Assembly: GCF_947487605.1 (NCBI RefSeq)
Contig: NZ_CANKXK010000011.1
Location: 47,759 to 111,758 of the forward strand
Length of the DNA stretch: 64,000 nt
Reading direction: 5' to 3'
DNA from: an uncultured Algibacter sp.
GTDB taxonomy: Bacteria > Bacteroidota > Bacteroidia > Flavobacteriales > Flavobacteriaceae
The notes under the pieces were generated by a model that worked only from the letters and a program-made list of their open reading frames with translations, was not told where the DNA came from and searched no databases. Both the position numbers and the translations under genes were made by a program. Positions 15,858 to 58,883 of the stretch are shown piece after piece (within the stretch, counting starts at the first letter, position 1; every line of letters begins with the position of its first letter).

Positions 15858-16955
15858 ATGAAAACAAATTTATTTTTATGTCTAGCGTTTTTGTTAGGCA
15901 TCGGCTTCTCGCAAGCACAAGACTTACCAGCAAATCCTGATCCAGGTAAATGCTACGTTAAATGTATTACCAAAGACGAGTTTAAAGATGTTGAAGAAAC
16001 TATAGAAGTTTATCCAGCATATACGAAGTTAGAAGTAGTACCTGCAACATATAGAACCGTTGAAGAACGTGTTTTAGTAAAAGAAACTTCTAAAAAATTC
16101 GTGTACGTACCAGCAACTTACGAAACTATTGAAGTTCCTTACATTAAAAAAGAAGGAAGAACAGATTTAAGCATTAATCCTGCAACTTTTGGTTCAGATT
16201 CTAGAACTTTCGAAGTATACCCTAAAACATCAGGTTGGGAGTACAAAGAAACTACTTGTGATTCACCAAACAAAGAAGACTGTGTTGTTGCATGTTTTGT
16301 TGAGTATCCAGCACAATTTAGAGATGTAAGTTTTACTACCTTAGCTAATGATGCTGGTACTAGCAATATTCCAATACCAGAAGTACCTACAGTATACAAA
16401 AAACGTGTTATTAAAACACCAGCTAGAATGGATGAGATAGAAATTCCAGCAGAATATACGACTATCAAGCGTCAAGTTGTAGCAACTCCTGCAACTACAA
16501 GAAGTGTAACTGTACCTGCAAAGTCTCAATCTATAACAAGAACTGTTTTAGCTAAAAAAGGTGGTATTACTACTTGGGAAGAAGTTGATTGTGGTCTTTT
16601 AAACGCGAACGTTTTACCAATATTTTATGAATTGGCTAGTGCTAGAATTACACCTGCATCTAAAAAGATAATTGATGAAACTCTATTACCATTACTTAAC
16701 AGCAAGCCTGTAAGCATTGAATTAATGTCTCATACAGATTCAAGAGGTAATGATGATTACAACATGTCTTTATCACAACAACGAGCTAACTCTGTAGTAA
16801 ACTACCTAGTATCTAAAGGTATTTCTAGAAGTAGACTATCTGCTAGAGGATATGGCGAGTCTAGATTAGTAAACCGTTGTGCAAATGGTGTTGAATGTTC
16901 TGAAGCAGAGCATCAAAAAAACAGAAGAACAGAATTTAGAGTAATTGGAAACTAA
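15858..16955 (+). CDS. OmpA-family protein with an N-terminal repeat region (PA.Y.T modules)
   Basis: 365 aa. Signal peptide. Repeated VPATYRTVEE / VPATYETIEV / IPAEYTTIKR modules. C-terminal OmpA_C domain (HTDSRGNDDYNMSLSQQRANSV ... NRRTEF). Confidence 0.85.
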   Translation: MKTNLFLCLAFLLGIGFSQAQDLPANPDPGKCYVKCITKDEFKDVEETIEVYPAYTKLEVVPATYRTVEERVLVKETSKKFVYVPATYETIEVPYIKKEGRTDLSINPATFGSDSRTFEVYPKTSGWEYKETTCDSPNKEDCVVACFVEYPAQFRDVSFTTLANDAGTSNIPIPEVPTVYKKRVIKTPARMDEIEIPAEYTTIKRQVVATPATTRSVTVPAKSQSITRTVLAKKGGITTWEEVDCGLLNANVLPIFYELASARITPASKKIIDETLLPLLNSKPVSIELMSHTDSRGNDDYNMSLSQQRANSVVNYLVSKGISRSRLSARGYGESRLVNRCANGVECSEAEHQKNRRTEFRVIGN

Positions 16956-46882: not shown

Positions 46883-47242
46883 ATGGAGAAGCTTACAAAT
46901 AAAGAGGAAGAAATTATGCATATATTATGGAAGCTTAAAAAAGCTTTTGTAAAGGACGTATTAGCAGAAATTAAAGACGATAAGCCTCACTACAACACCT
47001 TATCAACCATTATTAGGAATTTAGAAGATAAAGGATATGTTGCCTACAATGCATATGGAAAGACCCACCAGTACTACCCTGTTGTAAGTAAAGAAAATTA
47101 TAGAAAGAAGTTTATGAATACAGCGATAAACAACTATTTTAATAATTCATATAAAAATATGGTGTCGTTTTTTGCTAAAGAAGAAAAGATAAGTGTTGAC
47201 GAACTTAAAGAGATTATTAACCTTATTGAAAAAAACAAATAG
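46883..47242 (+). CDS. BlaI/MecI/CopY-family transcriptional repressor
   Basis: 119 aa. Winged-helix N-terminus (EEEIMHILWK...FVKDVL) followed by an M56 gene 2 nt downstream. Confidence 0.88.
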   Translation: MEKLTNKEEEIMHILWKLKKAFVKDVLAEIKDDKPHYNTLSTIIRNLEDKGYVAYNAYGKTHQYYPVVSKENYRKKFMNTAINNYFNNSYKNMVSFFAKEEKISVDELKEIINLIEKNK

Positions 47243-47244
47243 CT

Positions 47245-49086
47245 ATGGAATATTTAATTAAAGTAAGTGCTGTTATAGCTATTTTTTATATTATTTATAA
47301 AGTGTTTTTAGATCGATATACTTTTTTCGAATCTAATAGATGGTTTTTATTGTTTGGACTAATAACTGCTTTCGCTATCCCTTTTTTAGTTATTCCTGTT
47401 TATATTGAAAGTTCACCTGCAATTGTACCAGACTATTTATATGCTGGAACAACAAGTAATGTTGTGGAGCAAAGGGCAACATTTAATCTAGTAGACACCA
47501 TAACCAGCATTTATTTACTTGGTTTAGTGGCGTTTAGTATTCGGTTTATAATTCAAATTGCTGCCTTATTTTTGATTATTATTAAAAATAAGAAAGAAAA
47601 AGAAGGTCATTATATCTTTATTAAAACCAATAGTAACATTTCGCCATTTTCATTTTTTAACTGGATTGTTTACAACCCGAAAGACTATTCGCAGACTGAG
47701 CTAAGTCTTATAATAGCTCACGAAAAGGTACATGCGTGTCAATTCCATTCGGTTGATGTTTTACTTACTCAATTGTCTTGTATTATACTTTGGTTTAATC
47801 CTTTTATTTGGCTGTATAACAAAGATTTAAAACAAAATTTAGAATTTATTGCAGACAAAAATGCGCAACAAAATTCTAATTGTAAAAAAAGCTATCAATA
47901 CACATTACTTAAAACAAGTATGCCAACTCATCAATTGGCTTTAAGTAATAATTTTTATAATTCATTAATCAAAAAACGAATCGTTATGTTACAGAAATCA
48001 AAATCTAAAAAAATTAATCAAATTAAGTACATCTTGGTTGTACCTTTATTGACTCTCTTTTTAATGAGTTTTAATACCAAAACTATTTTTATAGAAAAAG
48101 AAAATCCTCTCATTAATGAGCTTAATTCGTTTAATTTTAATGAAGATAAGCCAGAAACTGAACAACAAACTAACTTAATTGCAGAAGAGCCAATAATAAA
48201 CAAGGAATACGGTAATACCAAAGAAACTAAAAAAGAGTCTAAACCATCTATTGTAAATAATAACCTTGATAAAGCTAAGAATGTTCAAGATTTTATAATA
48301 ACTAAAAATAGTAGTGATGCAGATTTAGATAAATTAATTTCAAAAATTAAAGCCGCAGGTGTAGACATAAAATTTAAGGGTGTTAAAAGAAATAGCAAAG
48401 GAGAAATTACATCAATTAAGATAGAAGCAAAATCTAAAAACTCTAACGCTAGCTTTAATCTTAACTCAGATGAGACCATCGAACCAATAAAAATCTCTTT
48501 TAAAAAAGGCGGTAAAAACCTATCTATAGGAAACACGTCTGCTATTCATCGCCTTCATACATCTGGAAAAGACCATAACGTTTTTATTTATTCTGATGAA
48601 GATGATGACCGCAAAATCCATAAAATAACTGGAGATTCAATTCACTATACTTACGCGACAAAAAAAGGCAAATACCATGTGTTAAGTAAAAATAAAAAGG
48701 TAGAGATAATATCTAGTGACGATAGTGATGGTGAAGTTGAAGTAATTATTGAAAGTGATGACGACAATGATGAGAACCATGAAGAAGATGCTATTATAAT
48801 TAAAAATGGAAAAACGATTACAACATCAAATAAAGGGAGTAATACTTTTAAAGTAAAAACCTTAGGAAATAGTAAAAGTGATAGTAAAATAATTATCACT
48901 TCAGACGATAAAGAGCAACCATTATTCATTGTTGATGGAGAAGAATACGAAAAAACAGGAATCGACGATATAAAACCAGATAACATTGAAAGTATTAATG
49001 TATTAAAAGGAGAATCGGCTGAAAAAAAGTATGGTAATAAAGGAAAAAATGGGGTTGTTGAAATTATAACAAAAAAGAAAAAATAA
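47245..49086 (+). CDS. BlaR1-like M56-family membrane metallopeptidase with a long low-complexity acidic region and a TonB-receptor-plug-like C-terminal motif
   Basis: 613 aa. TM helices, HEKVH zinc motif (IIAHEKVHACQFH). Asp/Glu/Ser-rich region. C-terminal IESINVLKGESAEKKYGNKGKNGVVEIITKKKK. Confidence 0.85.
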   Translation: MEYLIKVSAVIAIFYIIYKVFLDRYTFFESNRWFLLFGLITAFAIPFLVIPVYIESSPAIVPDYLYAGTTSNVVEQRATFNLVDTITSIYLLGLVAFSIRFIIQIAALFLIIIKNKKEKEGHYIFIKTNSNISPFSFFNWIVYNPKDYSQTELSLIIAHEKVHACQFHSVDVLLTQLSCIILWFNPFIWLYNKDLKQNLEFIADKNAQQNSNCKKSYQYTLLKTSMPTHQLALSNNFYNSLIKKRIVMLQKSKSKKINQIKYILVVPLLTLFLMSFNTKTIFIEKENPLINELNSFNFNEDKPETEQQTNLIAEEPIINKEYGNTKETKKESKPSIVNNNLDKAKNVQDFIITKNSSDADLDKLISKIKAAGVDIKFKGVKRNSKGEITSIKIEAKSKNSNASFNLNSDETIEPIKISFKKGGKNLSIGNTSAIHRLHTSGKDHNVFIYSDEDDDRKIHKITGDSIHYTYATKKGKYHVLSKNKKVEIISSDDSDGEVEVIIESDDDNDENHEEDAIIIKNGKTITTSNKGSNTFKVKTLGNSKSDSKIIITSDDKEQPLFIVDGEEYEKTGIDDIKPDNIESINVLKGESAEKKYGNKGKNGVVEIITKKKK

Positions 49087-49739: not shown

Positions 49740-50213
49740 TTAAATAAATAGTAGCTGACAGCCTTCTTGATCTGCTCTACTATAAAAATCTCCTATGGTT
49801 AGTATGCCATCTAATTCATCAATTAAATCTTCATCTTTTAAATGAAACATATCTACCGCCAATTTACATGCCCAGAGCTTACAACCTGAGTCTGAAAGAA
49901 TTTCTAAAAACTCACCTACAGGTGGCATGTCTAATTTTTCCATTTCTTTTTTCATCATTTTTGTAGCTAAAGCTTCCATTCCTGGTAAACCGCCTAACAT
50001 GGTTGGTATGTGCATCCCTGGATTACCTACTGTGGCTACATGTAAATGTTCTAGCTTTTTCTTTTGAATAGCTTCCAGTCCAAAAAAAGTAAAAAATATT
50101 TCGGATTCTATCCCTTCCATTCTTGCACCGTTGGCCATTACAAATGCAGCATATGCATTTTCTATAGTTGCTTTTGATAAGATGAAAAGCATTTTTTTAA
50201 CTTTTGTGCCCAT
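49740..50213 (-). CDS. DsrE/DsrF/DrsH-like sulfur-relay family protein
   Basis: 157 aa. Rossmann-like DsrE fold pattern (LFILSKATIENAYAAFVMANGA) with conserved Cys in KLWACKLA. Last gene of the sqr operon. Confidence 0.75.
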   Translation of the reverse strand: MGTKVKKMLFILSKATIENAYAAFVMANGARMEGIESEIFFTFFGLEAIQKKKLEHLHVATVGNPGMHIPTMLGGLPGMEALATKMMKKEMEKLDMPPVGEFLEILSDSGCKLWACKLAVDMFHLKDEDLIDELDGILTIGDFYSRADQEGCQLLFI

Positions 50214-50251
50214 AATTATATGTTTTAAATTAGTCTTTCGTATTTATTAAA

Positions 50252-50560
50252 TTAAATACAACTTTTTGGTTTTGGTACACCAGCAATTTTAGTTGAAATT
50301 TTTAATGGCCCTTTAGGAAAGAGTGCATAGAATTCTTTGATGTCTAATACACCACTTTTTTTAATACCTCTAATAGATAAGGCTACGTCATTTTTTACTT
50401 GCTCTTGAAGCCAAGAAACCACTTCCCAATGCCTATCTGTCATTTCAATACCTTCATTCTTAGCTATCTCAAGTCCAATGTCTTTATTCCATTGAGATAC
50501 GTCTGTTAAATATCCGTCTTCCGTGACGTCTAATCTAATTCCTGCAATATTTAAATCCAT
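50252..50560 (-). CDS. TusE/DsrC/DsvC-family sulfur-relay protein (single C-terminal Cys, TusE type)
   Basis: 102 aa. GYL.D...W, HWEVV..LQ, and C-terminal GVPKPKSCI with the penultimate Cys. No second Cys 10 residues upstream. Confidence 0.8.
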   Translation of the reverse strand: MDLNIAGIRLDVTEDGYLTDVSQWNKDIGLEIAKNEGIEMTDRHWEVVSWLQEQVKNDVALSIRGIKKSGVLDIKEFYALFPKGPLKISTKIAGVPKPKSCI

Positions 50561-50577
50561 AATATTTAGTGTTTTAA

Positions 50578-51822
50578 TTAATTCCTTTTTATATCAAATA
50601 TTTTTCCTTTAAAACTCATATTCCTTGAAACAAATGGAATGGCAATACCTTTTAAAAGCATATTCCAATAAATCCATCTAAAAGCCAATTTTCCCCAGTG
50701 ATTAAAAATACTTTCTTTTAATAATTTTAGAGGTCCGATTTTTGGAAAAGGGAAAGTTCCATGTACTGGTTCTGTATTATAATTAAAATCAATAAGTAAA
50801 GCCTTGTTATTTCCGGTCTCTATAAAGCAGTTTGCATGTCCATCAAATTCTTCTTTTAAGGTATATCCTTTTATATATAAAAGAATGTTATCGGTTAAAG
50901 TTTCAGCTTGAAAGTGTGCTACAGATCCTGCTTTAGAAGCTGGCACATTGGTCGCATCACCAATTACAAATATGTTTTCGTGTTCTATAGATTGTAAGGT
51001 ATGCTTATGTGTTGGAATAAAGTTTAAATCATCTCCCAAACCAGAGCGTTCAATAAGCTCATCACCCATATTTGTGGGAACTGTTACTAATAAATCAAAC
51101 GGGATTGTTTTATCTCCGTAATCAACAATTTCTTTTTTTTCATTGTCTACTCTTTCTATTGCAAAATCAGCTTCCATATGGATTCCTTTTTCAGATAAAA
51201 GATAGCTTAATGATTTAGAGCAGGTAGGCTTTGTGAAAGCCCCAGACAAAGGCGTAACATAAGTAATTTCTACTTTATCTCTCATGCCTTTTTTAGTAAA
51301 ATAAGAATCAGCCAAAAACGCAAATTCTAAAGGTGCTACTGGGCATTTAATAGGCATTTCTGTTATGTGTATAACCAGTTTCCCACCATCCCATTCACGC
51401 AATTTATTTCGTAATGCTAAAGCACCTTCAAACGTGTAAAAATCGAATATATCTTTTTTCCATAGTGGTCCTAATAAACCTTCGGTTTCCTCTGGTACAA
51501 TTTTAGATCCTGTAGCAATAATTAATAGGTCATAATCTAAGGTTTCATCCTCAAGAACGACTTGATTATCTACTGGTAAAATTTTATCTATTTTTTTTTG
51601 AATATAATTAACGCCTTTGGGAATAAACTTTTTACCAACTTTTTTTACTTGATCTTCTGTATAGGTATCAAATGGAAGAAATAAAAACCCTGGTTGATAA
51701 TAATGTGTTTTATATTGATCGATAATTGTAATGCTCCAATCTTTTTTTGGGAGTTTAGAAACCAAATGATTTGCCATCATAGTTCCAGAAGTTCCAGCCC
51801 CTAATATTATTAAATTTTTCAT
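50578..51822 (-). CDS. sqr: sulfide:quinone oxidoreductase-like FAD-dependent pyridine nucleotide-disulfide oxidoreductase
   Basis: 414 aa. GAGTSGT dinucleotide fold. Candidate redox Cys in IKCPVAPLEF (C160) and HANCFIE (C332). VIGDATN. Amphipathic C-terminal tail. Confidence 0.75.
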   Translation of the reverse strand: MKNLIILGAGTSGTMMANHLVSKLPKKDWSITIIDQYKTHYYQPGFLFLPFDTYTEDQVKKVGKKFIPKGVNYIQKKIDKILPVDNQVVLEDETLDYDLLIIATGSKIVPEETEGLLGPLWKKDIFDFYTFEGALALRNKLREWDGGKLVIHITEMPIKCPVAPLEFAFLADSYFTKKGMRDKVEITYVTPLSGAFTKPTCSKSLSYLLSEKGIHMEADFAIERVDNEKKEIVDYGDKTIPFDLLVTVPTNMGDELIERSGLGDDLNFIPTHKHTLQSIEHENIFVIGDATNVPASKAGSVAHFQAETLTDNILLYIKGYTLKEEFDGHANCFIETGNNKALLIDFNYNTEPVHGTFPFPKIGPLKLLKESIFNHWGKLAFRWIYWNMLLKGIAIPFVSRNMSFKGKIFDIKRN

Positions 51823-51906
51823 TTTATTTAATTTTAAACTTCCTATTAAAATTTCTAGAGTAGTTTATTTCTTTGGTAAAAGTAAACGAATTAGCATATA
51901 AATAAT

Positions 51907-51920
51907 ATGACAAAAATCAT
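51907..51920. promoter_or_regulatory. CRP-like palindrome ATGACAAAAATCAT, site 2, upstream of sqr
   Basis: Same 14-mer as site 1. Its centre lies 29.5 nt from a minus-strand near-consensus -7 box TACTTTTA (51884-51877), the same geometry as site 3. Confidence 0.5.
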
Positions 51921-51930
51921 GTAAACCCTT

Positions 51931-51948
51931 GTGTAACAAAGGTTACAC
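51931..51948. promoter_or_regulatory. perfect palindrome GTGTAAC-AAAG-GTTACAC
   Basis: Read directly. 10 nt from site 2. GTAAC-N4-GTTAC recurs at 54386-54399. Confidence 0.45.
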
Positions 51949-51991
51949 GGGTAATAAAATAACAATGACCCTCAAAATAAAATATAAAAAG

Positions 51992-52003
51992 TGATAATTA
52001 TCA
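51992..52003. promoter_or_regulatory. perfect 12-bp palindrome TGATAATTATCA (Fur-box-like half-sites)
   Basis: Read directly. Sits 24-35 nt upstream of the candidate -7 box of the FadL-like gene, in the -33 zone. Confidence 0.3.
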
Positions 52004-52026
52004 TAGTTAAAGATACCTTCTAAAAG

Positions 52027-52034
52027 TAGCTTTG
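52027..52034 (+). promoter_or_regulatory. -7 box candidate (TAGCTTTG) for the FadL-like gene
   Basis: Exact TAnnTTTG match 84 nt upstream of the ATG at 52118. Confidence 0.3.
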
Positions 52035-52117: not shown

Positions 52118-53521
52118 ATGAAAACTAAACTAATAAACCTATTATTACTATTATTTTTTTCGCCAGTAGCTTTTTCGCAAGCTGGTCACATTATGCAAGG
52201 TGCAGGAGCCGTAAACATGTCTATGGGGGGAGCTTCAACAGCACAACCACTAGATATTTCTGGAGCTTTACATTGGAACCCTGCTGCCATATCTGCTTTT
52301 AACGACAAAATTATAAAGCTTGATGTTGGTTTATTCTTTTCTTCTCCAGAATTAAGTTCTGGTTTACCTGCTAATATTCTATGGCAACCAGGAGATTTTG
52401 GCCCTGGTTCTCCTGGTGCTCCTCCAGTCTCTGGAATAACTAAAGATGATAGAGGTATGTCTCCAATGCCTGCTTTAGCCATGCTTTGGGGAAAAGAAGA
52501 TAGCAAACATACTTTTGGTGTTTCTGCTTTTGGCATTAGTGGCTTTGGTGTAACATTTCCACAAGACAATAATGCTCCTGTAGACTCACAAGGTAATCCA
52601 AACCCAAATTTTAACCCTATAGGTAATTCTAATCCCATTAATTACCCACAAGCCGCACAGGGGTTTGGACATATAGAATCTGATTACATGTTATTACAAG
52701 TAGGATTATCTTATGCTTATGAAATAACCGATAAGTTCTCTATTGGTATTCAGCCAAATATAGATTATGCTGCATTAGAACTAGCACCTAATCCAACTGC
52801 AAAACCTAATATGTTTGGATATCCAAACACAGATAGTGCAACAGCTATTGGTTTTGGTGCTCAATTTGGAGTGTTCTATGATTCAGGATTAGGATTAAAA
52901 CTAGGAGCATCCTATAAAACAGCACAAAAATTTAGTGAATTTGAATTCGATAATACATATCCAGACAATACCACTGCTAAAAATAAATTCCAAATGGATT
53001 ATCCTGCTATTTTCTCTCTTGGATTGGGATATTCACAAGGAGATATTGATTTAGCGCTAGATTTTAGACGTGTTGATTATGAAAATACAGATGGTTTTGC
53101 TGAAACAGGTTGGACAATAGATCAAAACATGTTACCTTCTGTAGCTGGATTTGGGTGGGAGAATATATCCATTATCTCTGCAGGGTTACAGTATAAAGGC
53201 ATTGCTAAATTACCTCTTCGTTTTGGCTATACTTACAGTTCTAACCCTATTCCAGAGGATATTGCGTTTTTTAATGTTCCTGCCACAGCAATTATTAAAA
53301 ATGCTTACCAATTTGGTTTAAGTTATAAGGTAAATAAAACTTGGAACATTGATGCCGTTTACCATTATGGAGATAGTAACGGAGCGACCGAAGGTCCATT
53401 ATTAAACCCTCGTAATATTTCTTCAGGAAATCCTACAGGAGCTGTTTCAGGGTCGTTTGTATCTTACGATATGACAACCTCAATGATACAATTTGGTATT
53501 AGTTATACATTTAACAAATAA
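52118..53521 (+). CDS. OMPP1/FadL/TodX-family outer-membrane transport protein
   Basis: 467 aa. Signal peptide. N-terminal GAGAVNMSMGGASTA hatch-like segment, alternating beta-strands, terminal YTF. Confidence 0.75.
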   Translation: MKTKLINLLLLLFFSPVAFSQAGHIMQGAGAVNMSMGGASTAQPLDISGALHWNPAAISAFNDKIIKLDVGLFFSSPELSSGLPANILWQPGDFGPGSPGAPPVSGITKDDRGMSPMPALAMLWGKEDSKHTFGVSAFGISGFGVTFPQDNNAPVDSQGNPNPNFNPIGNSNPINYPQAAQGFGHIESDYMLLQVGLSYAYEITDKFSIGIQPNIDYAALELAPNPTAKPNMFGYPNTDSATAIGFGAQFGVFYDSGLGLKLGASYKTAQKFSEFEFDNTYPDNTTAKNKFQMDYPAIFSLGLGYSQGDIDLALDFRRVDYENTDGFAETGWTIDQNMLPSVAGFGWENISIISAGLQYKGIAKLPLRFGYTYSSNPIPEDIAFFNVPATAIIKNAYQFGLSYKVNKTWNIDAVYHYGDSNGATEGPLLNPRNISSGNPTGAVSGSFVSYDMTTSMIQFGISYTFNK

Positions 53522-53868: not shown

Positions 53869-54354
53869 TTAGTTTATTATCTCTTTTCTTAGTAAGAACC
53901 CTTTCTTTCTTTGCTCGTTATAATGTTTATCAAACCAATCTGGTTTCTCTATATCATTATCATATATATAATCTGAAATTTGTTTTAACTTTTCCTCAGA
54001 AACTTCAAGCTTGGGCATTAATCCAAATCTTTTCACAGCACCATACATTTTTGCATTAGCTTCTGTTGGATTTTCAAACCAAGCATAGATATCGTTAATA
54101 AAATCTTCTTTATTTGTTCCCTCTAAGATATATCGTTTTTTTACTGCTATCATTGGTGGCGCTAATCTTTCATCATGACTTGCAGTTGCGCTATGGCATA
54201 TATTACATTGGTTCTCCATAAGCTTTTTACCAGGATGTATTTCTTGATTATTATGCTGTACAAAAGGCGGGTATTTTTTTGTCTTCTGGCAACTAACTAC
54301 AAACACCAAAGCGGTTAATAAGATAAGAGGTTTCATAAATTTTGTATTATACAA
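53869..54354 (-). CDS. monohaem c-type cytochrome lipoprotein
   Basis: 161 aa. Lipobox VVSC. Haem-binding CNICH. Candidate axial Met in LAPPM. The start may be M7 at 54336. Confidence 0.75.
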   Translation of the reverse strand: MYNTKFMKPLILLTALVFVVSCQKTKKYPPFVQHNNQEIHPGKKLMENQCNICHSATASHDERLAPPMIAVKKRYILEGTNKEDFINDIYAWFENPTEANAKMYGAVKRFGLMPKLEVSEEKLKQISDYIYDNDIEKPDWFDKHYNEQRKKGFLLRKEIIN

Positions 54355-54385
54355 TCAAAGATACCAACTCATAATAAAATTTAAC

Positions 54386-54399
54386 GTAACCTAAGTTAC
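54386..54399. promoter_or_regulatory. palindrome GTAAC-CTAA-GTTAC upstream of the cytochrome c gene
   Basis: Read directly. Same half-sites and spacing as 51931-51948. Lies 32-45 nt upstream of the annotated start. Confidence 0.4.
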
Positions 54400-54463
54400 A
54401 GATGGATTATTAACATTTAAAAAGTCGAAACTTTACACGATAAATTTTACAAAATAATGGAAA

Positions 54464-54505: not shown

Positions 54506-54512
54506 TTGTCTG

Positions 54513-54586
54513 TGACCACGGCAGGATTCAAACCTGCAACCTCTTGAGCCGTAATCAAGTGCGCTATTCAGTTGCGCCACGTGGCC
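54513..54586 (-). tRNA. tRNA-Arg (anticodon ACG)
   Basis: Hand-folded cloverleaf: acceptor GGCCACG/CGTGGTC, D-stem GCGC/GCGC, anticodon stem CTTGA/TCAAG with loop TTACGGC, T-arm GCAGG-TTTGAAT-CCTGC, discriminator A. CCA is not encoded. Confidence 0.9.
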
Positions 54587-54669
54587 GTTTTTAATGGGTG
54601 CAAATATACTATTAATTAAAACTTTAACAAACAATTTATTTCAAATTTATAAATCCGTATTTTTGAACC

Positions 54670-55299
54670 ATGACTAATGAAATATTACATCAAAAATTTA
54701 ATCATACCCTCGATAGCAATCTTTTAAATGAAATTGCAAATGTTGGTACGTATAAATCTTTTTTAAAAGATGATATAATTATAGATATTGATCAACCATT
54801 AGAAAATATACCACTCTTATTAAGTGGCCATATTAAAATACTAAGAGAAGATGACCAAGGAAATGATTTACTTATTTATTTCTTAGAAGCTGGTGAAACT
54901 TGCACCATGTCACTTACTTGCTGTATGGGGACATCAAAAAGTAAAATAAGAGCCGTTGCAGAGCAAGATTCTAGCCTCGTTATGATACCTGTACAAAAGA
55001 TGCAAGAATGGTTTCATAATAATGAGAGTTGGCGTAACTTTATTTTGAGTAGTTATCAGATTCGTTTTGATGAAATGCTTGATGCTATTGATAGTATTGC
55101 GTTTTTAAAAATGGATGAGCGTTTACACAAATACCTAGTCAACAAAACGGTACTAAATAGCTCTAATACTATTTTAATGAAGCACCAAGATATTGCTGAA
55201 GATTTACATACTTCTCGAGTTGTTATATCAAGACTTCTTAAGCAACTTGAAAACGAGAATAAAATAAATCTTGGCAGAAATAAAATCGTGGTTTTATAA
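54670..55299 (+). CDS. Crp/Fnr-family transcriptional regulator with a three-Cys cluster in the effector domain
   Basis: 209 aa. cNMP-binding-like beta-barrel and C-terminal HTH (HQDIAEDLHTSRVVISRLLKQL). Its only cysteines are C78, C84 and C85 (GETCTMSLTCCMG). Confidence 0.88.
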   Translation: MTNEILHQKFNHTLDSNLLNEIANVGTYKSFLKDDIIIDIDQPLENIPLLLSGHIKILREDDQGNDLLIYFLEAGETCTMSLTCCMGTSKSKIRAVAEQDSSLVMIPVQKMQEWFHNNESWRNFILSSYQIRFDEMLDAIDSIAFLKMDERLHKYLVNKTVLNSSNTILMKHQDIAEDLHTSRVVISRLLKQLENENKINLGRNKIVVL

Positions 55300-55343: not shown

Positions 55344-55892
55344 ATGGAATACATATTAAACCCTTGGCCGTGGTATATATCTGGCCCATTAATAGCCATT
55401 ATAATGGCCTTGCTTTTATATTTTGGAAAAACCTTTGGCATGTCTTCTAATTTAAGTACGATGTGTACCATTTTGGGTGCTGGAAAGCGCATAAATTTTT
55501 TTAAAATGAACTGGAAAGATCAATCTTGGAACATAACTGTTGTTATTGGTGCCATTATTGGAGGTTTCATAGCTACCCAATATTTAAGCAATAATAGTAT
55601 TACTAATCTAAATTCTACTACGATTACAGAACTACAACAAATGGGATTTAAAAACTCAGGGGTTTCCTTAGTTCCAGATGAAATATTTAAGTTAAGTTCA
55701 ATAAAAGAATTACTAATCTTAATAACTGGAGGTCTACTTGTTGGGTTTGGAACACGGTATGCTGGCGGATGCACCTCTGGCCACGCTATTTCTGGCCTTA
55801 GCAGTTTACAAAAACCATCGCTTATTGCAGTTATTGGATTCTTTATTGGTGGCCTAATTATGACTAATATTATTTTACCTCTAATATTTTAA
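55344..55892 (+). CDS. YeeE/YedE-family sulfur-compound transporter, first half-type subunit
   Basis: 182 aa. TM helices. RYAGGCTSGH signature. Confidence 0.8.
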   Translation: MEYILNPWPWYISGPLIAIIMALLLYFGKTFGMSSNLSTMCTILGAGKRINFFKMNWKDQSWNITVVIGAIIGGFIATQYLSNNSITNLNSTTITELQQMGFKNSGVSLVPDEIFKLSSIKELLILITGGLLVGFGTRYAGGCTSGHAISGLSSLQKPSLIAVIGFFIGGLIMTNIILPLIF

Positions 55893-55894
55893 AT

Positions 55895-56308
55895 ATGAAA
55901 TACTTAAAATTTTTGCTTGTTGGTGTTTTCTTTGGAATTATACTAGTTAAATCTGAAGCTGTTTCTTGGTATAGAATTTATGAGATGTTTAGATTTCAAT
56001 CTTTCCACATGTATGGTATTATAAGCACTGCAATTGTGAGTGGTATTTTATTTTTACAGTTTTCAAAAAGAGGTTATATTAAAAGTATAAAAGGAGCCAA
56101 TATTTTTGTCCCTAAAAAAGAAAAAGGTATTACAAGATACTTCGTTGGAGGCATTATTTTTGGTCTAGGATGGGCATTAATAGGCACATGTCCTGGTCCC
56201 ATGTATATATTATTAGGCACAGGTGTTTTTAGCATGTTTATTGTAATTGCTGCTGCCATATTGGGCACTTTTATATATGGCGTCTTAAAAAACAAACTCC
56301 CTCATTAA
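55895..56308 (+). CDS. YeeE/YedE-like membrane protein, second half-type subunit (DUF6691-like)
   Basis: 137 aa. Four TM helices. LIGTCPG motif. 2-nt gap after the previous gene. Confidence 0.7.
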   Translation: MKYLKFLLVGVFFGIILVKSEAVSWYRIYEMFRFQSFHMYGIISTAIVSGILFLQFSKRGYIKSIKGANIFVPKKEKGITRYFVGGIIFGLGWALIGTCPGPMYILLGTGVFSMFIVIAAAILGTFIYGVLKNKLPH

Positions 56309-57100
56309 ATGGATAACACCCAACTATTTGGATATATTGGTGCGTTAATAGTAGGATTAGTACTAGGATTAATTGGAGGAGGCGGATCCATCTTAACAGT
56401 GCCTATATTGGTGTACTTACTAGGCTATAATCCAATAGTTGCTACTGCCTATTCTCTATTTGTTGTTGGCACTACATCCATGGTTGGCACGTTTCAGAAA
56501 TACAAAAAAGGGTTGGTAGACTTTAAAACGGGTTTTGCTTTTTCTTTTCCATCGTTTATAGCAGTTTATCTTTCGCGAAGATATTTGGTACCTAATATTC
56601 CTGATAGACTTTTTAATATTGATGATTTTACATTTACTAAAGAAATGGGAATTATGATCTTTTTTGCAATCATAATGATTATAGCGTCCTATTCTATGAT
56701 TAAAAATAAAACAGACAATAGTTCACTAAAAGAAAAGCAAGCATATTACAAAACTTTTATTCAAGCAATAGTTATAGGAACAATTACAGGATTTATAGGC
56801 GCAGGAGGTGGATTTTTATATGTACCAGCACTTGTAATTTGGGCAAATATTCCAATGAAAAAAGCAGTTGGCACATCATTAATAATAGTTACCATCAACT
56901 CATTAATTGGTTTTATTGGCGATATTCAAACCTTAGAGATAGATTGGGTATTCCTTTTATCGTTTACACTAATATCTATAGTTGGCATTATTTTGGGTGT
57001 ATTTCTGTCAAAATTTATTAGTGGTAAAAAACTTAAAAAAAGTTTTGGATTTTTCACTTTAATAATGGCTGTTTATATTATATATAAAGAAACCAATTAA
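56309..57100 (+). CDS. TauE/SafE-family sulfite/organosulfonate exporter
   Basis: 263 aa. Two internal repeats with GGGGSILTVP and GAGGGFLYVP motifs. Confidence 0.85.
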   Translation: MDNTQLFGYIGALIVGLVLGLIGGGGSILTVPILVYLLGYNPIVATAYSLFVVGTTSMVGTFQKYKKGLVDFKTGFAFSFPSFIAVYLSRRYLVPNIPDRLFNIDDFTFTKEMGIMIFFAIIMIIASYSMIKNKTDNSSLKEKQAYYKTFIQAIVIGTITGFIGAGGGFLYVPALVIWANIPMKKAVGTSLIIVTINSLIGFIGDIQTLEIDWVFLLSFTLISIVGIILGVFLSKFISGKKLKKSFGFFTLIMAVYIIYKETN

Positions 57101-57105
57101 AGTAA

Positions 57106-57121
57106 TGTGACAAAAATCACA
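57106..57121. promoter_or_regulatory. perfect CRP-consensus palindrome TGTGA-CAAAAA-TCACA, site 3, upstream of the cstB-like gene
   Basis: Read directly. Its centre lies 29.5 nt upstream of the first base of the -7 box at 57143, which would put it near -42 of the inferred start site (a class II activator position). Confidence 0.55.
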
Positions 57122-57142: not shown

Positions 57143-57150
57143 TATTTTTG
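57143..57150 (+). promoter_or_regulatory. -7 box candidate (TATTTTTG) for the cstB-like gene
   Basis: Exact TAnnTTTG match 18 nt upstream of the ATG at 57168. Confidence 0.4.
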
Positions 57151-57167
57151 AATGATACTTTTTTAAA

Positions 57168-58580
57168 ATGAAAATAGAGCAAATATATACAGGCTGTTTA
57201 GCACAAGGTGCTTATTACATAGAATCTAATGGAGAAGTTGCGATAATTGATCCGCTTCGTGAAACCCAACAATATGTAGATAAAGCCAATAGAGAAAATG
57301 CAAAAATTAAATATATTTTTGAAACACATTTTCATGCCGATTTTGTTTCTGGTCACGTAGATTTAGCAAAAAAAACTGGTGCTATAATTGTTTATGGGCC
57401 AGGGGCAGAAACCAATTACGATATACATTGTGCTAAGGATGAAGAAAAATTTAAATTAGGAAATATTACTATAAAAGTTTTACACACACCGGGACATACA
57501 TTAGAGTCTTCTACTTACCTATTAATTGATAAATCTGGAAAAGATTATGCTATTTTTTCTGGAGACACTTTGTTTTTAGGCGATGTTGGAAGGCCCGATT
57601 TAGCCATAAAGTCTGACCTAACAAAAGAAGATTTAGCAGGAATGCTCTACGATTCGCTTAGGAATAAAATAATGCCATTAGCAGACGATGTTATTGTTTA
57701 TCCCGCTCATGGTGCTGGTTCTGCATGCGGAAAAAATTTGAGCAAAGAAACCATTGGAATTTTAGGTGATGAGAAAAAAACAAATTACGCATTAAGAGCA
57801 GATATGACCAAAGCAGAATTTATTGAAGAAGTTCTTGATGGCATAGCGCCACCACCACAGTATTTTGCAAAAAATGCGATGATGAATAAATCTGGGTATG
57901 ATACTTTTGAAACAGTTTTAAAAAAGGGAGACAATGCGTTAACCCCTGAAGCCTTTGAACATTTAGCAAACGAAGGAAATGCTTTAGTGCTGGATGTAAG
58001 ACATGAAAAAGATTTTATAAAGGGCCATATTCCAAACTCCATTTTTATTGGCATCCATGGTGGGTTTGCACCTTGGGTAGGTGCTTTAATTACAGACTTA
58101 AAACAACCTATTTTATTAGTAGCTCCAGAAGGTAAAGCAAAAGAAACTGTTACTAGATTATCTCGTGTAGGGTATGATAACACACTTGGCTATTTAGAAG
58201 GCGGTATTGAAGCTTGGGTAGCTTCTGGAAGAGATATAGAAACTTTAGACTCTATTTCGGTTAACACCTTTAAGAATGTGTTTAAGGACAAAAGCATTCA
58301 TGTTTTAGATGTTAGAAAAGATGGTGAATACAAATCGGAACATTTAGATGGAAATTCTGTGCAGCACTTTGCTTTAGATTATATAAATGATAACATGAAT
58401 AAAATTGATGTAAGGAAAACATATTACATTCATTGTGCAGGTGGTTATCGATCTGTAATTGCAGCTTCTATACTTAAAGCTCGTGGCTTTAAGAACTTAA
58501 TAGATGTCGCAGGTGGTTTTGGAGCCATGAAAAAAACAGATTTACCAACTACAGAGTTTGTTTGCCCTTCAACTTTATAA
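57168..58580 (+). CDS. CstB-like persulfide dioxygenase (MBL fold) fused to a pseudo-rhodanese and an active rhodanese domain
   Basis: 470 aa. THFHADFVSGH metal motif. The middle rhodanese-like domain lacks a catalytic Cys. The C-terminal domain has HCAGGYRS. Confidence 0.82.
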   Translation: MKIEQIYTGCLAQGAYYIESNGEVAIIDPLRETQQYVDKANRENAKIKYIFETHFHADFVSGHVDLAKKTGAIIVYGPGAETNYDIHCAKDEEKFKLGNITIKVLHTPGHTLESSTYLLIDKSGKDYAIFSGDTLFLGDVGRPDLAIKSDLTKEDLAGMLYDSLRNKIMPLADDVIVYPAHGAGSACGKNLSKETIGILGDEKKTNYALRADMTKAEFIEEVLDGIAPPPQYFAKNAMMNKSGYDTFETVLKKGDNALTPEAFEHLANEGNALVLDVRHEKDFIKGHIPNSIFIGIHGGFAPWVGALITDLKQPILLVAPEGKAKETVTRLSRVGYDNTLGYLEGGIEAWVASGRDIETLDSISVNTFKNVFKDKSIHVLDVRKDGEYKSEHLDGNSVQHFALDYINDNMNKIDVRKTYYIHCAGGYRSVIAASILKARGFKNLIDVAGGFGAMKKTDLPTTEFVCPSTL

Positions 58581-58616
58581 GTAATTTTTGATATCAAGTT
58601 GATAAAGAAATATAAA

Positions 58617-58883
58617 ATGAAAACAACTTTAGAAATACAAAACCTAAAATGTTCTGGTTGTGCTAATACCATTACCAAAAAGGTTTCTAGTTTAGAAGGT
58701 ATCACAGAATTAAAGGTTTATACAGACACTAACACTTTATCTTTTCAATATGAAAACGAAGCTACTGCAGATAAAGTAAAAGAGCTTCTTTCTATTATTG
58801 GATACCCTGTTGTAGGAGAAAAAAATGCATTAACAACTAAAGCAAAGTCTTTTGTAAGTTGCGCAATTGGGAGAATAAAATAA
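58617..58883 (+). CDS. heavy-metal-associated (HMA) domain protein
   Basis: ORF track 58599..58883. I prefer M7 (MKTTLEIQNLKCSGCANTI...). Ferredoxin-like HMA fold with a CSGC motif plus an extra C-terminal Cys (SFVSCAIG). Confidence 0.7.
   Translation: MKTTLEIQNLKCSGCANTITKKVSSLEGITELKVYTDTNTLSFQYENEATADKVKELLSIIGYPVVGEKNALTTKAKSFVSCAIGRIK

Follow-up and report, generated by a model that had tools for sequence, protein, structure and literature searches.

We describe a putative sulfur-responsive activator of the Crp/Fnr superfamily that is encoded in a 64,000-nucleotide stretch of DNA ("the window", G+C content 32%) from an uncultured Algibacter sp. (contig NZ_CANKXK010000011.1). The gene, crp (54670-55299, forward strand), starts with ATG and encodes 209 amino acids, as supported by the list of open reading frames (ORFs), Pfam, AlphaFold and Foldseek. 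On the evidence of sequence, the protein is very likely the local regulator of a sulfur regulon, working through the operator TGTRAY-N4-RTYACA, and it probably acts as an activator. Its only cysteines form a conserved triad, C78-x5-C84-C85. The complete statement, that of a local activator of the sulfur regulon whose triad senses sulfane sulfur, we consider about evenly poised between right and wrong. The observed conservation of the triad, taken with the fold, the gene linkage, the operator and the promoter geometry, makes a thiol-based activator responding to sulfide or sulfane sulfur the best reading. We infer the binding of the protein to the operator and the activation from sequence patterns, and we infer the sensing chemistry of the triad from its context only.

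The cysteine triad and the effector domain

The cysteines C78, C84 and C85 lie inside GETCTMSLTCCMG, which begins at residue 75, and their codons are found at 54901-54924 of the forward strand (54901-54903 and 54919-54924). In a BLASTP alignment with E. coli CRP, C78 aligns with I70, C84 and C85 with F76 and E77, and K90-S91 with R82-S83. Residues 79-86 form a short cassette helix in the AlphaFold model. As placed by alignment and model, the triad sits in the phosphate-binding cassette, which is part of the pocket that binds cyclic adenosine monophosphate (cAMP) in CRP. A preliminary description of this DNA, made from the letters alone, had located three cysteines and no others within the effector barrel and had suggested a structure prediction; the translation, the CRP alignment and the AlphaFold model, with its cassette helix, all agree with that location.

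The assignment to the Crp/Fnr superfamily rests on profiles and on the model. The Pfam family cNMP_binding (PF00027) matches residues 29-117 with 35.1 bits against a cut-off of 27.5, and HTH_Crp_2 (PF13545) matches residues 150-209. The AlphaFold model, computed with 48 homologues as input, has a mean predicted local distance difference test score (pLDDT) of 91.8 and consists of a beta-roll, the short helix 79-86, a long helix 119-144 and a C-terminal helix-turn-helix (HTH) at 172-195. Foldseek matched it to CAP, NtcA, GlxR and DNR with a probability of 1.00, the top matches being CAP, NtcA and GlxR. The cNMP-type beta-roll, the long dimerisation helix and the winged HTH of the superfamily are thus all present. 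The closest named homologue (86% identity) comes from Hyunsoonleella, which marks the source as a marine flavobacterium of the family Flavobacteriaceae, and NCBIfam has no specific family for the protein.

The triad is invariant in 16 of 16 orthologues from different genera (72-86% identity). All but one of the 80 genome loci (79; 52-83% identity) have the C-x5-CC pattern, as do 78 of 80 loci from metagenomes, which were retrieved with a different, more distant query and share 46-57% identity with the window protein. Together, 157 of the 160 orthologous loci keep it, at identities as low as 46%, and at the level of sequence this conservation exceeds chance. The preliminary description had proposed to align orthologues and had staked its case on the cysteines being kept; this is what was found. 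The only genome locus without the full triad (L070, 8001-8621) carries phenylalanine in place of C85, and it is also among the few that have no sulfur genes and no operators within 16 kb. In one metagenome lineage (L164, 6013-6603; L172, 1180-1770) C78 is kept and W-E replaces C84-C85. Among the orthologues, mean column conservation is 0.87 for the HTH, 0.81 for the cassette (residues 66-98), 0.79 for the C-helix and 0.48-0.73 for the remaining segments, which makes the cassette the second most conserved block of the regulator.

The wider family was sampled through 140 cluster representatives whose identity does not exceed 50%. All but two of them (138) retain C78, and 97 have a second cysteine at position 84 and/or 85; the patterns are CCC in 53, C78 with C84 in 20, C78 with C85 in 24 and C78 alone in 41. 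No further ligand-type residue was found to co-vary with the CC pair; modest shifts are confined to T77 and S128. In relatives M80 is replaced by I, L or V, K90 is not conserved across the wider triad group, and R132 on the C-helix is invariant.

Operator, promoter geometry and predicted regulon

The recognition helix TSRVVISRLLKQLE (55213-55254, forward strand) is the most conserved block of the regulator (mean 0.87), with R183, V184 and R188 at the positions of R180, E181 and R185 of CRP. Compared with the R180-E181-x3-R185 of CRP, both arginines are kept, as the preliminary description had stated, and the glutamate is replaced by V184, as in NtcA (R-V-T-V-T-R). The compatibility with GTGA-type half-sites that was read there from the helix appears to need modification: the operators accept G or A at position 4 and resemble those of NtcA and HcpR2 more than the strict TGTGA box of CRP.

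The operator was found by scoring the regions upstream of pdo for CRP-like palindromes. In the window pdo (57168-58580, forward strand) encodes a CstB-like persulfide dioxygenase that joins a metallo-beta-lactamase fold to two rhodanese domains (Pfam Lactamase_B and twice Rhodanese), with partial NCBIfam matches to Blh and GloB. A common 16-mer palindrome, TGTRAY-N4-RTYACA, was present with no more than one mismatch in 64 of 72 such regions, against 0.68 expected from shuffled controls (maximum 3). Over the 80 genome loci, sites were found upstream of pdo (63), yeeE1 (26), crp (9), tauE (8), cytochrome c genes (5) and sqr (3); in the metagenome set they precede tauE in 33 of 37 cases, pdo in 29 of 38 and sqr in 4 of 4. 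Conserved and correctly positioned palindromes lie next to the regulator gene in about 140 other genomes and contigs. An operator of the form GTAAC-N4-GTTAC has been predicted for HcpR2, a Crp/Fnr branch with a substituted E181 (PMC1274295).

In 58 of the 64 pdo promoters the centre of the operator lies 28.5 or 29.5 nt before the first base of TAnnTTTG, the -7 box of Bacteroidota, and the same spacing was seen at genes other than pdo. If transcription starts a few bases past the -7 box, the operator would be centred near -41.5. CRP, FNR and NtcA act as class II activators from sites centred near this position. There is no evident -33 element in the pdo promoter of the window. Such rigid spacing across diverged promoters favours activation over repression. 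A sigma-70 promoter scan of the window remained at the level of shuffled sequence (49 found, 49.9 expected), this model not being applicable to Bacteroidota promoters. In the sequencing runs searched, the regulator sequence occurred in no RNA run; it was met in metagenome DNA only, with a share of at most 0.10.

Gene linkage in relatives points to the same regulon. The genes yeeE, tauE and/or pdo stand directly downstream of the regulator in 73 of the 80 genome loci and a cytochrome c gene in three more; in the metagenome set, 53 of the 61 loci that span 5 kb or more have sulfur genes next to it. Eight remoter members with the triad were inspected for neighbours. They include a member of 51% identity with tauE and pdo nearby, one of 47% in the arrangement yeeE-yeeE-crp-GNAT-thioredoxin, one of 44% with a divergent SQR-like gene, in an organism of 53% GC, and one of 43% beside a DoxX/MauE-like gene. 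The same palindrome occurs at the tauE-pdo, yeeE-thioredoxin and sqr-linked members of 44-51% identity. The contigs L092, L094 and L095 are too short or too poorly annotated to show neighbours. Four members without the full triad were also inspected, two of them on contigs from among these three. One, with the pattern CC- (C78 and C84, no C85), adjoins a 2-oxoglutarate-Fe(II) oxygenase gene, and a C78-only member (L096, 5001-5931) is followed by the gene of a 69-residue YgaP-like (DUF2892) membrane protein, which hints that single-cysteine relatives also control sulfur-trafficking genes.

The predicted regulon was counted from 135 operator sites with the correct geometry. The genes downstream are pdo (70), yeeE1 (27), tauE (8), cytochrome c (5), sqr (3), crp (2) and an HMA-domain gene (1). 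The remaining sites precede, among others, genes for cytochrome bd subunit I (L074, 12248), thioredoxin (L010, 468), a PsrBC-like fused 4Fe-4S/NrfD protein (L044/L049, 9711), a SulP permease (L049, 16137) and a TPMT-family methyltransferase (L076, 11294), and a TolC-like efflux gene follows a well-positioned operator four times (L010, L019, L065 and L079). No catalase, peroxidase or AhpC gene was found among the 135 sites. Sulfide induces cytochrome bd, thioredoxin and sulfide-oxidising enzymes in bacteria (PMC13467558), and the additional targets predicted in relatives fit sulfide stress.

Two perfect operators occur in the window, against 0.06 expected. The first, TGTGACAAAAATCACA (57106-57121, forward strand), lies in the pdo promoter, 29.5 nt from the -7 box TATTTTTG (57143-57150, forward strand) as measured from its centre, and has orthologous sites in relatives. 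The second, TGTAACAAAGGTTACA (51932-51947), lies between the FadL-like gene and sqr, and neither strand has a -7 box at 28.5 or 29.5 nt from it. It belongs to a 43-nt block that is 100% identical to Algibacter mikhailovii, and 26 bp and 58 bp away are two weaker sites. The perfect palindrome may be an auxiliary high-affinity, or cooperative, site. The candidate site of the sqr promoter is degenerate, with three mismatches (51906-51921, reverse strand), and stands 29.5 nt from the box TACTTTTA (51877-51884, reverse strand); that of the FadL-like gene, AGTGATAATTATCATA (51990-52005, forward strand), has two mismatches and stands 29.5 nt from TAGCTTTG (52027-52034). Both are conserved with the Algibacter locus L003, and all three sites of the region are phylogenetic footprints shared with Algibacter mikhailovii, the flanks having diverged.

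A one-mismatch operator precedes the cytochrome c gene (54385-54400, reverse strand), 29.5 nt from the box TATCTTTG (54356-54363, reverse strand); orthologous sites stand before cytochrome c genes in L062, L065, L076 and L079. This ORF had been listed from a TTG at 54354, 2 nt past the end of the predicted -7 box at 54356. Since that codon would precede the predicted transcript, the true start is probably the ATG at 54336, which yields the lipoprotein signal peptide MKPLILLTALVFVVSC; the gene then spans 53869-54336 (reverse strand; Pfam Cytochrom_C). One-mismatch matches are at chance frequency in the window as a whole (4 found, 2.76 expected), and the one at 16746 was dropped for want of a suitably spaced -7 box. 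The three GTGA-type sites that the preliminary description had counted in the window are not a type of their own: together with the GTAAC palindromes, including 51932-51947 and the cytochrome c site, they form the single family TGTRAY-N4-RTYACA. The separate classes "CRP site", "FNR-like 5-4-5 palindrome" and "Fur-like box" were likewise rejected, all of these fitting one motif and one spacing rule.

The regulator gene itself appears to be served by a second copy of the box TATTTTTG (54658-54665, forward strand), the likely crp promoter, which ends 4 nt before the ATG at 54670; this distance suggests that the crp mRNA is leaderless or nearly so. No TGTRAY-N4-RTYACA site was found upstream of crp or yeeE1 in the window, where the crp-yeeE-yeeE-tauE unit looks constitutive, or driven by the crp promoter alone. 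In many relatives, unlike the window, yeeE or tauE has its own predicted regulated promoter. The regulator heads the yeeE-yeeE-tauE run as described before, and the gaps given then were reproduced: 44 nt from crp to yeeE1, 2 nt from yeeE1 to yeeE2 and 0 nt from yeeE2 to tauE, with 67 nt from tauE to pdo. No terminator was found between crp and pdo. The two yeeE genes (55344-56308, forward strand) encode a split YeeE/YedE-type sulfur transporter (Pfam Sulf_transp and DUF6691) that is syntenic in most loci, and tauE (56309-57100, forward strand) encodes a TauE/SafE sulfite-exporter family protein (Pfam TauE, 3e-44). A gene for a 94-residue HMA-domain protein (58599-58883, forward strand) starts 18 nt 3' of pdo and is probably co-transcribed with it. 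In some 30 of the 80 genome loci this gene comes after pdo, and in L075 it is preceded by an operator of its own. The protein, which has a CSGC motif and a C-terminal cysteine, may serve as a chaperone for metal or as a carrier of sulfur.

On the other side of crp, an operon on the reverse strand (49740-51822) encodes a type III SQR flavoprotein, a TusE/DsrC-like and a DsrE2-like protein (NCBIfam; Pfam DsrC and DrsE_2). The SQR matches NCBIfam NF049943 (type III SQR) with 648 bits against a cut-off of 525. The NCBIfam model is that of a "selenoprotein subtype"; the gene here has no in-frame stop. The three genes are tightly packed, and the same trio is present in Algibacter (L003). The FadL/TodX-type outer-membrane protein is encoded divergently (52118-53521, forward strand; Pfam Toluene_X). 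The Crp-type protein is the sole regulator encoded in this sulfur island, and no ArsR-, CsoR- or sigma-54-type regulator was found there. A tRNA-Arg(ACG) gene (54512-54586, reverse strand), with a long hairpin after it, splits the island between the cytochrome c gene and crp; no integrase was seen near it. At the left border (46883-49086, forward strand) lie what we take, by eye from the ORF translations, to be a BlaI/MecI-like repressor and a BlaR1-like M56 membrane protein.

Proposed mechanism and alternatives

We propose that the protein is a dimeric Crp/Fnr-fold factor dedicated to the local activation of a regulon that detoxifies sulfide and reactive sulfur. In the window this would comprise the pdo-rhodanese gene, the type III sqr with its sulfur carriers, the cytochrome c and the FadL-like porin, to which relatives would add yeeE, tauE, thioredoxin and cytochrome bd. 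Bound to an operator near -41.5, the regulator would replace the -33 element and recruit RNA polymerase as a class II activator. The signal would be read in the former cyclic-nucleotide pocket, with C78 as the family-wide sensing cysteine and C84 and C85 as its resolving partners on the cassette helix. Sulfane sulfur, that is persulfides or polysulfides arising from sulfide oxidation, would react with C78 and C84-C85, and the persulfide would resolve into an intramolecular di- or polysulfide link. Such a link would reshape the cassette helix against the C-helix and swing the HTH into the DNA-binding position, the route taken by cAMP in CRP. It would both require and cause local unfolding of the cassette helix, and we speculate that strain in a vicinal disulfide might make the insertion of sulfur more favourable than oxidation alone.

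Several observations weigh against this proposal, chief among them the W-E lineage and the triad members that lack sulfur genes nearby. C78 is conserved throughout the family, also beside unrelated genes, and may be structural. The W-E lineage has lost the CC pair, yet its regulator still adjoins pdo and yeeE. On an ideal helix C78 and C84/C85 are 6-7 residues apart, so that a link between them needs deformation of the helix, and confidence in the model is lowest near the triad (pLDDT 70 for residues 81-90). Three of the eight distant triad members have no visible sulfur genes nearby. As for the operator, a palindrome that borders on the -33 position might in principle mediate repression, and paralogous Crp/Fnr proteins with similar helices (L122) could bind the same boxes.

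The same evidence has to be weighed under other explanations of the pocket. It might bind a sulfur oxyanion or small anion such as sulfite or thiosulfate, either non-covalently or through sulfitolysis of a C84-C85 disulfide, with the cysteines lining or tuning the site. The neighbouring PDO, TauE and YeeE have sulfite and thiosulfate as product and substrate, no genes are linked to the regulator more tightly than tauE and yeeE, the cassette retains the anion-binding pair K90-S91 (R82-S83 of CRP), and the invariant R132 aligns with the region of the 2-oxoglutarate-binding arginine of NtcA. We nevertheless find this rather unlikely: K90 is lost in the wider triad group, an invariant vicinal cysteine pair is unexpected in a plain anion site, and where regulators of this gene set are known, it is sulfane sulfur and not sulfite that they sense (PMC13467558). 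That the triad holds an Fe-S cluster or a soft metal (Cu, Zn, Cd or As) and senses O2, redox state, nitric oxide or metal, as FNR, NsrR and ArsR do, is in our view unlikely. The C-x5-C spacing does resemble the three-cysteine sites known generally from Rrf2 regulators, Fe-S sensors exist in the Crp/Fnr family, and an HMA-domain gene follows pdo in many loci. The regulator nevertheless has neither the N-terminal cluster of FNR nor a fourth conserved ligand, T77 and S128 alone co-varying with the pair, and tandem cysteines rarely ligate one cluster. The regulon is sulfur-related and not metal-related, and an O2-labile activating cofactor fits poorly with a main target that is an O2-dependent dioxygenase in aerobic flavobacteria.

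A general sensor of thiol oxidation or electrophiles (H2O2, disulfide stress, quinones), switched by a C78-C84/85 or vicinal disulfide and not specific to sulfur, would have precedents in CprK and Flp, Crp/Fnr members generally known to be disulfide-switched. Thioredoxin is among the predicted targets, and C78 with one further cysteine is a common pattern in paralogues with non-sulfur neighbours. The core targets pdo, sqr, tauE and yeeE are, however, specific to sulfide and persulfide handling, and this together with the lack of catalase, peroxidase and AhpC genes at the well-positioned sites makes such a sensor quite unlikely. C78 might alternatively be the axial ligand of a CooA-like haem-thiolate sensor, in which sulfide or another gas binds the haem; it is nearly universal in the family, and the CooA ligands Cys75 and His77 are generally known to lie in the equivalent part of the beta-roll. 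SqrR and YgaV are reported to use haem (PMC12344995). As there is no conserved histidine nearby, M80 is variable, CooA is a weak sequence match and the invariant CC pair would be left unexplained, we regard a haem sensor as very improbable. Hardly credible, finally, is that the cysteines are structural and the regulator acts constitutively or on some unrelated signal, a paralogue binding the palindromes. C78 could indeed be a buried packing residue, and paralogues with near-identical recognition helices exist; against this, a CC pair on a surface helix is kept in nearly all of the orthologous loci at about 50% overall identity, gene and operator are tightly co-localised, and the cassette is among the most conserved blocks.

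If sulfane-sulfur sensing by a Crp-fold activator is true, it adds a new scaffold for sulfur sensing and a new logic, activation versus de-repression, and the most-studied allosteric pocket of bacteria would have been rebuilt for covalent sulfur chemistry. The published CsoR, ArsR and Fis-type scaffolds leave the control of sqr, pdo and tauE in Bacteroidota unexplained, a group that includes abundant marine flavobacteria that break down algal material in sulfidic particles and sediments. With a predicted operator, a promoter layout and three target residues, the idea is open to direct test, and these elements could yield a compact sulfide-responsive reporter for Bacteroidota.

Comparison with known regulators

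A cAMP-binding CRP was rejected. The residues of CRP that contact cAMP (G71, E72, R82, S83, T127 and S128) align with T79, M80, K90, S91, M136 and L137, of which the serine alone is kept, and the NCBIfam model of CRP scores 40.7 against a cut-off of 266. As far as the alignment goes, the pocket cannot bind cAMP in the manner of CRP.

An FNR-type Fe-S sensor was also rejected. In FNR an N-terminal C-x2-C-x5-C motif (C20, C23 and C29) and C122 hold a [4Fe-4S] cluster; the regulator has three cysteines in total and none before residue 78, in line with the distinction drawn in the preliminary description. The E-x2-S-R recognition motif of FNR and its TTGAT-N4-ATCAA site are likewise absent; the regulator has S-R-V-V-I-S-R and the box TGTRAY-N4-RTYACA. 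FNR, CprK and Flp share the fold and a control of DNA binding by cysteine chemistry. In CprK and Flp, however, it is distant cysteines that form disulfides, and C-x5-CC in the cassette is found in none of the three.

Three Crp/Fnr proteins come closer. The best match among solved structures is PDB 3DV8 of Eubacterium rectale (E 2.5e-28), which has cysteines aligned with C78 and C84; it differs in being an uncharacterised structural-genomics protein from another phylum, without C85. By sequence profile, NtcA is the closest characterised relative after 3DV8. It shares the R-V-x-x-x-R recognition helix, its box GTA-N8-TAC is compatible with TGTRAY-N4-RTYACA, and it activates as class II from about -41.5 at promoters without an upstream element. 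In contrast to the proposed regulator, NtcA senses 2-oxoglutarate non-covalently, controls nitrogen genes and has no cysteine triad; the NtcA equivalog TIGR03697 scores 44.5 on the regulator against a cut-off of 244.95, and the neighbours here are sulfur genes. The HcpR2 branch of Bacteroides and Clostridium (PMC1274295) is likewise of Crp/Fnr type, includes members of the same phylum and combines a substituted E181 with a predicted GTAAC-N4-GTTAC operator. It is hcp-linked, concerns nitrosative stress and has proline at the E181 position, whereas the regulator has valine and a sulfur regulon; no hcp was found among its neighbours in the window or in the genome loci.

In its predicted targets the regulator resembles proteins of quite different folds. 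CstR of the CsoR family, which controls the cst operon of S. aureus, and SqrR/BigR of the ArsR family have as targets tauE, CstB/Blh-type persulfide dioxygenase-rhodanese and sqr, and conserved cysteines are the presumed sensor there as here. They are nevertheless repressors, whose repression ends when two cysteines become joined by a di-, tri- or tetrasulfide, whereas the regulator has the Crp/Fnr scaffold, an activator-type promoter geometry and three cysteines that include a vicinal pair. FisR of Cupriavidus is an activator of the sulfide-oxidation genes sqr-pdo with sensing cysteines in its regulatory domain, but as an AAA+ enhancer-binding protein that works with sigma-54 it has no similarity in fold or promoter.

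The scaffolds published for reactive-sulfur sensors are the CsoR, the ArsR and the sigma-54 Fis-type (2026 review, PMC13467558), and full-text searching of the published literature found no Crp-type reactive-sulfur sensor. Like these sensors, the regulator is encoded beside sqr, pdo and tauE genes that share an operator, and it would control them; by its fold it belongs to none of the CsoR, ArsR or sigma-54 enhancer-binding families, and it may work like their members. We put forward, tentatively and at somewhat less than even chances, that the triad Crp/Fnr proteins make up a structural class of their own, the fourth, among dedicated reactive-sulfur sensors. This class would be widespread in Bacteroidota and consist of class II activators with a sensing C78 and a resolving C84-C85, in which a covalent polysulfide link mimics cAMP, and the wider family, whose members have only C78 or C78 and one partner cysteine, would then be a radiation of thiol sensors analogous to the 1-Cys and 2-Cys forms of OhrR.

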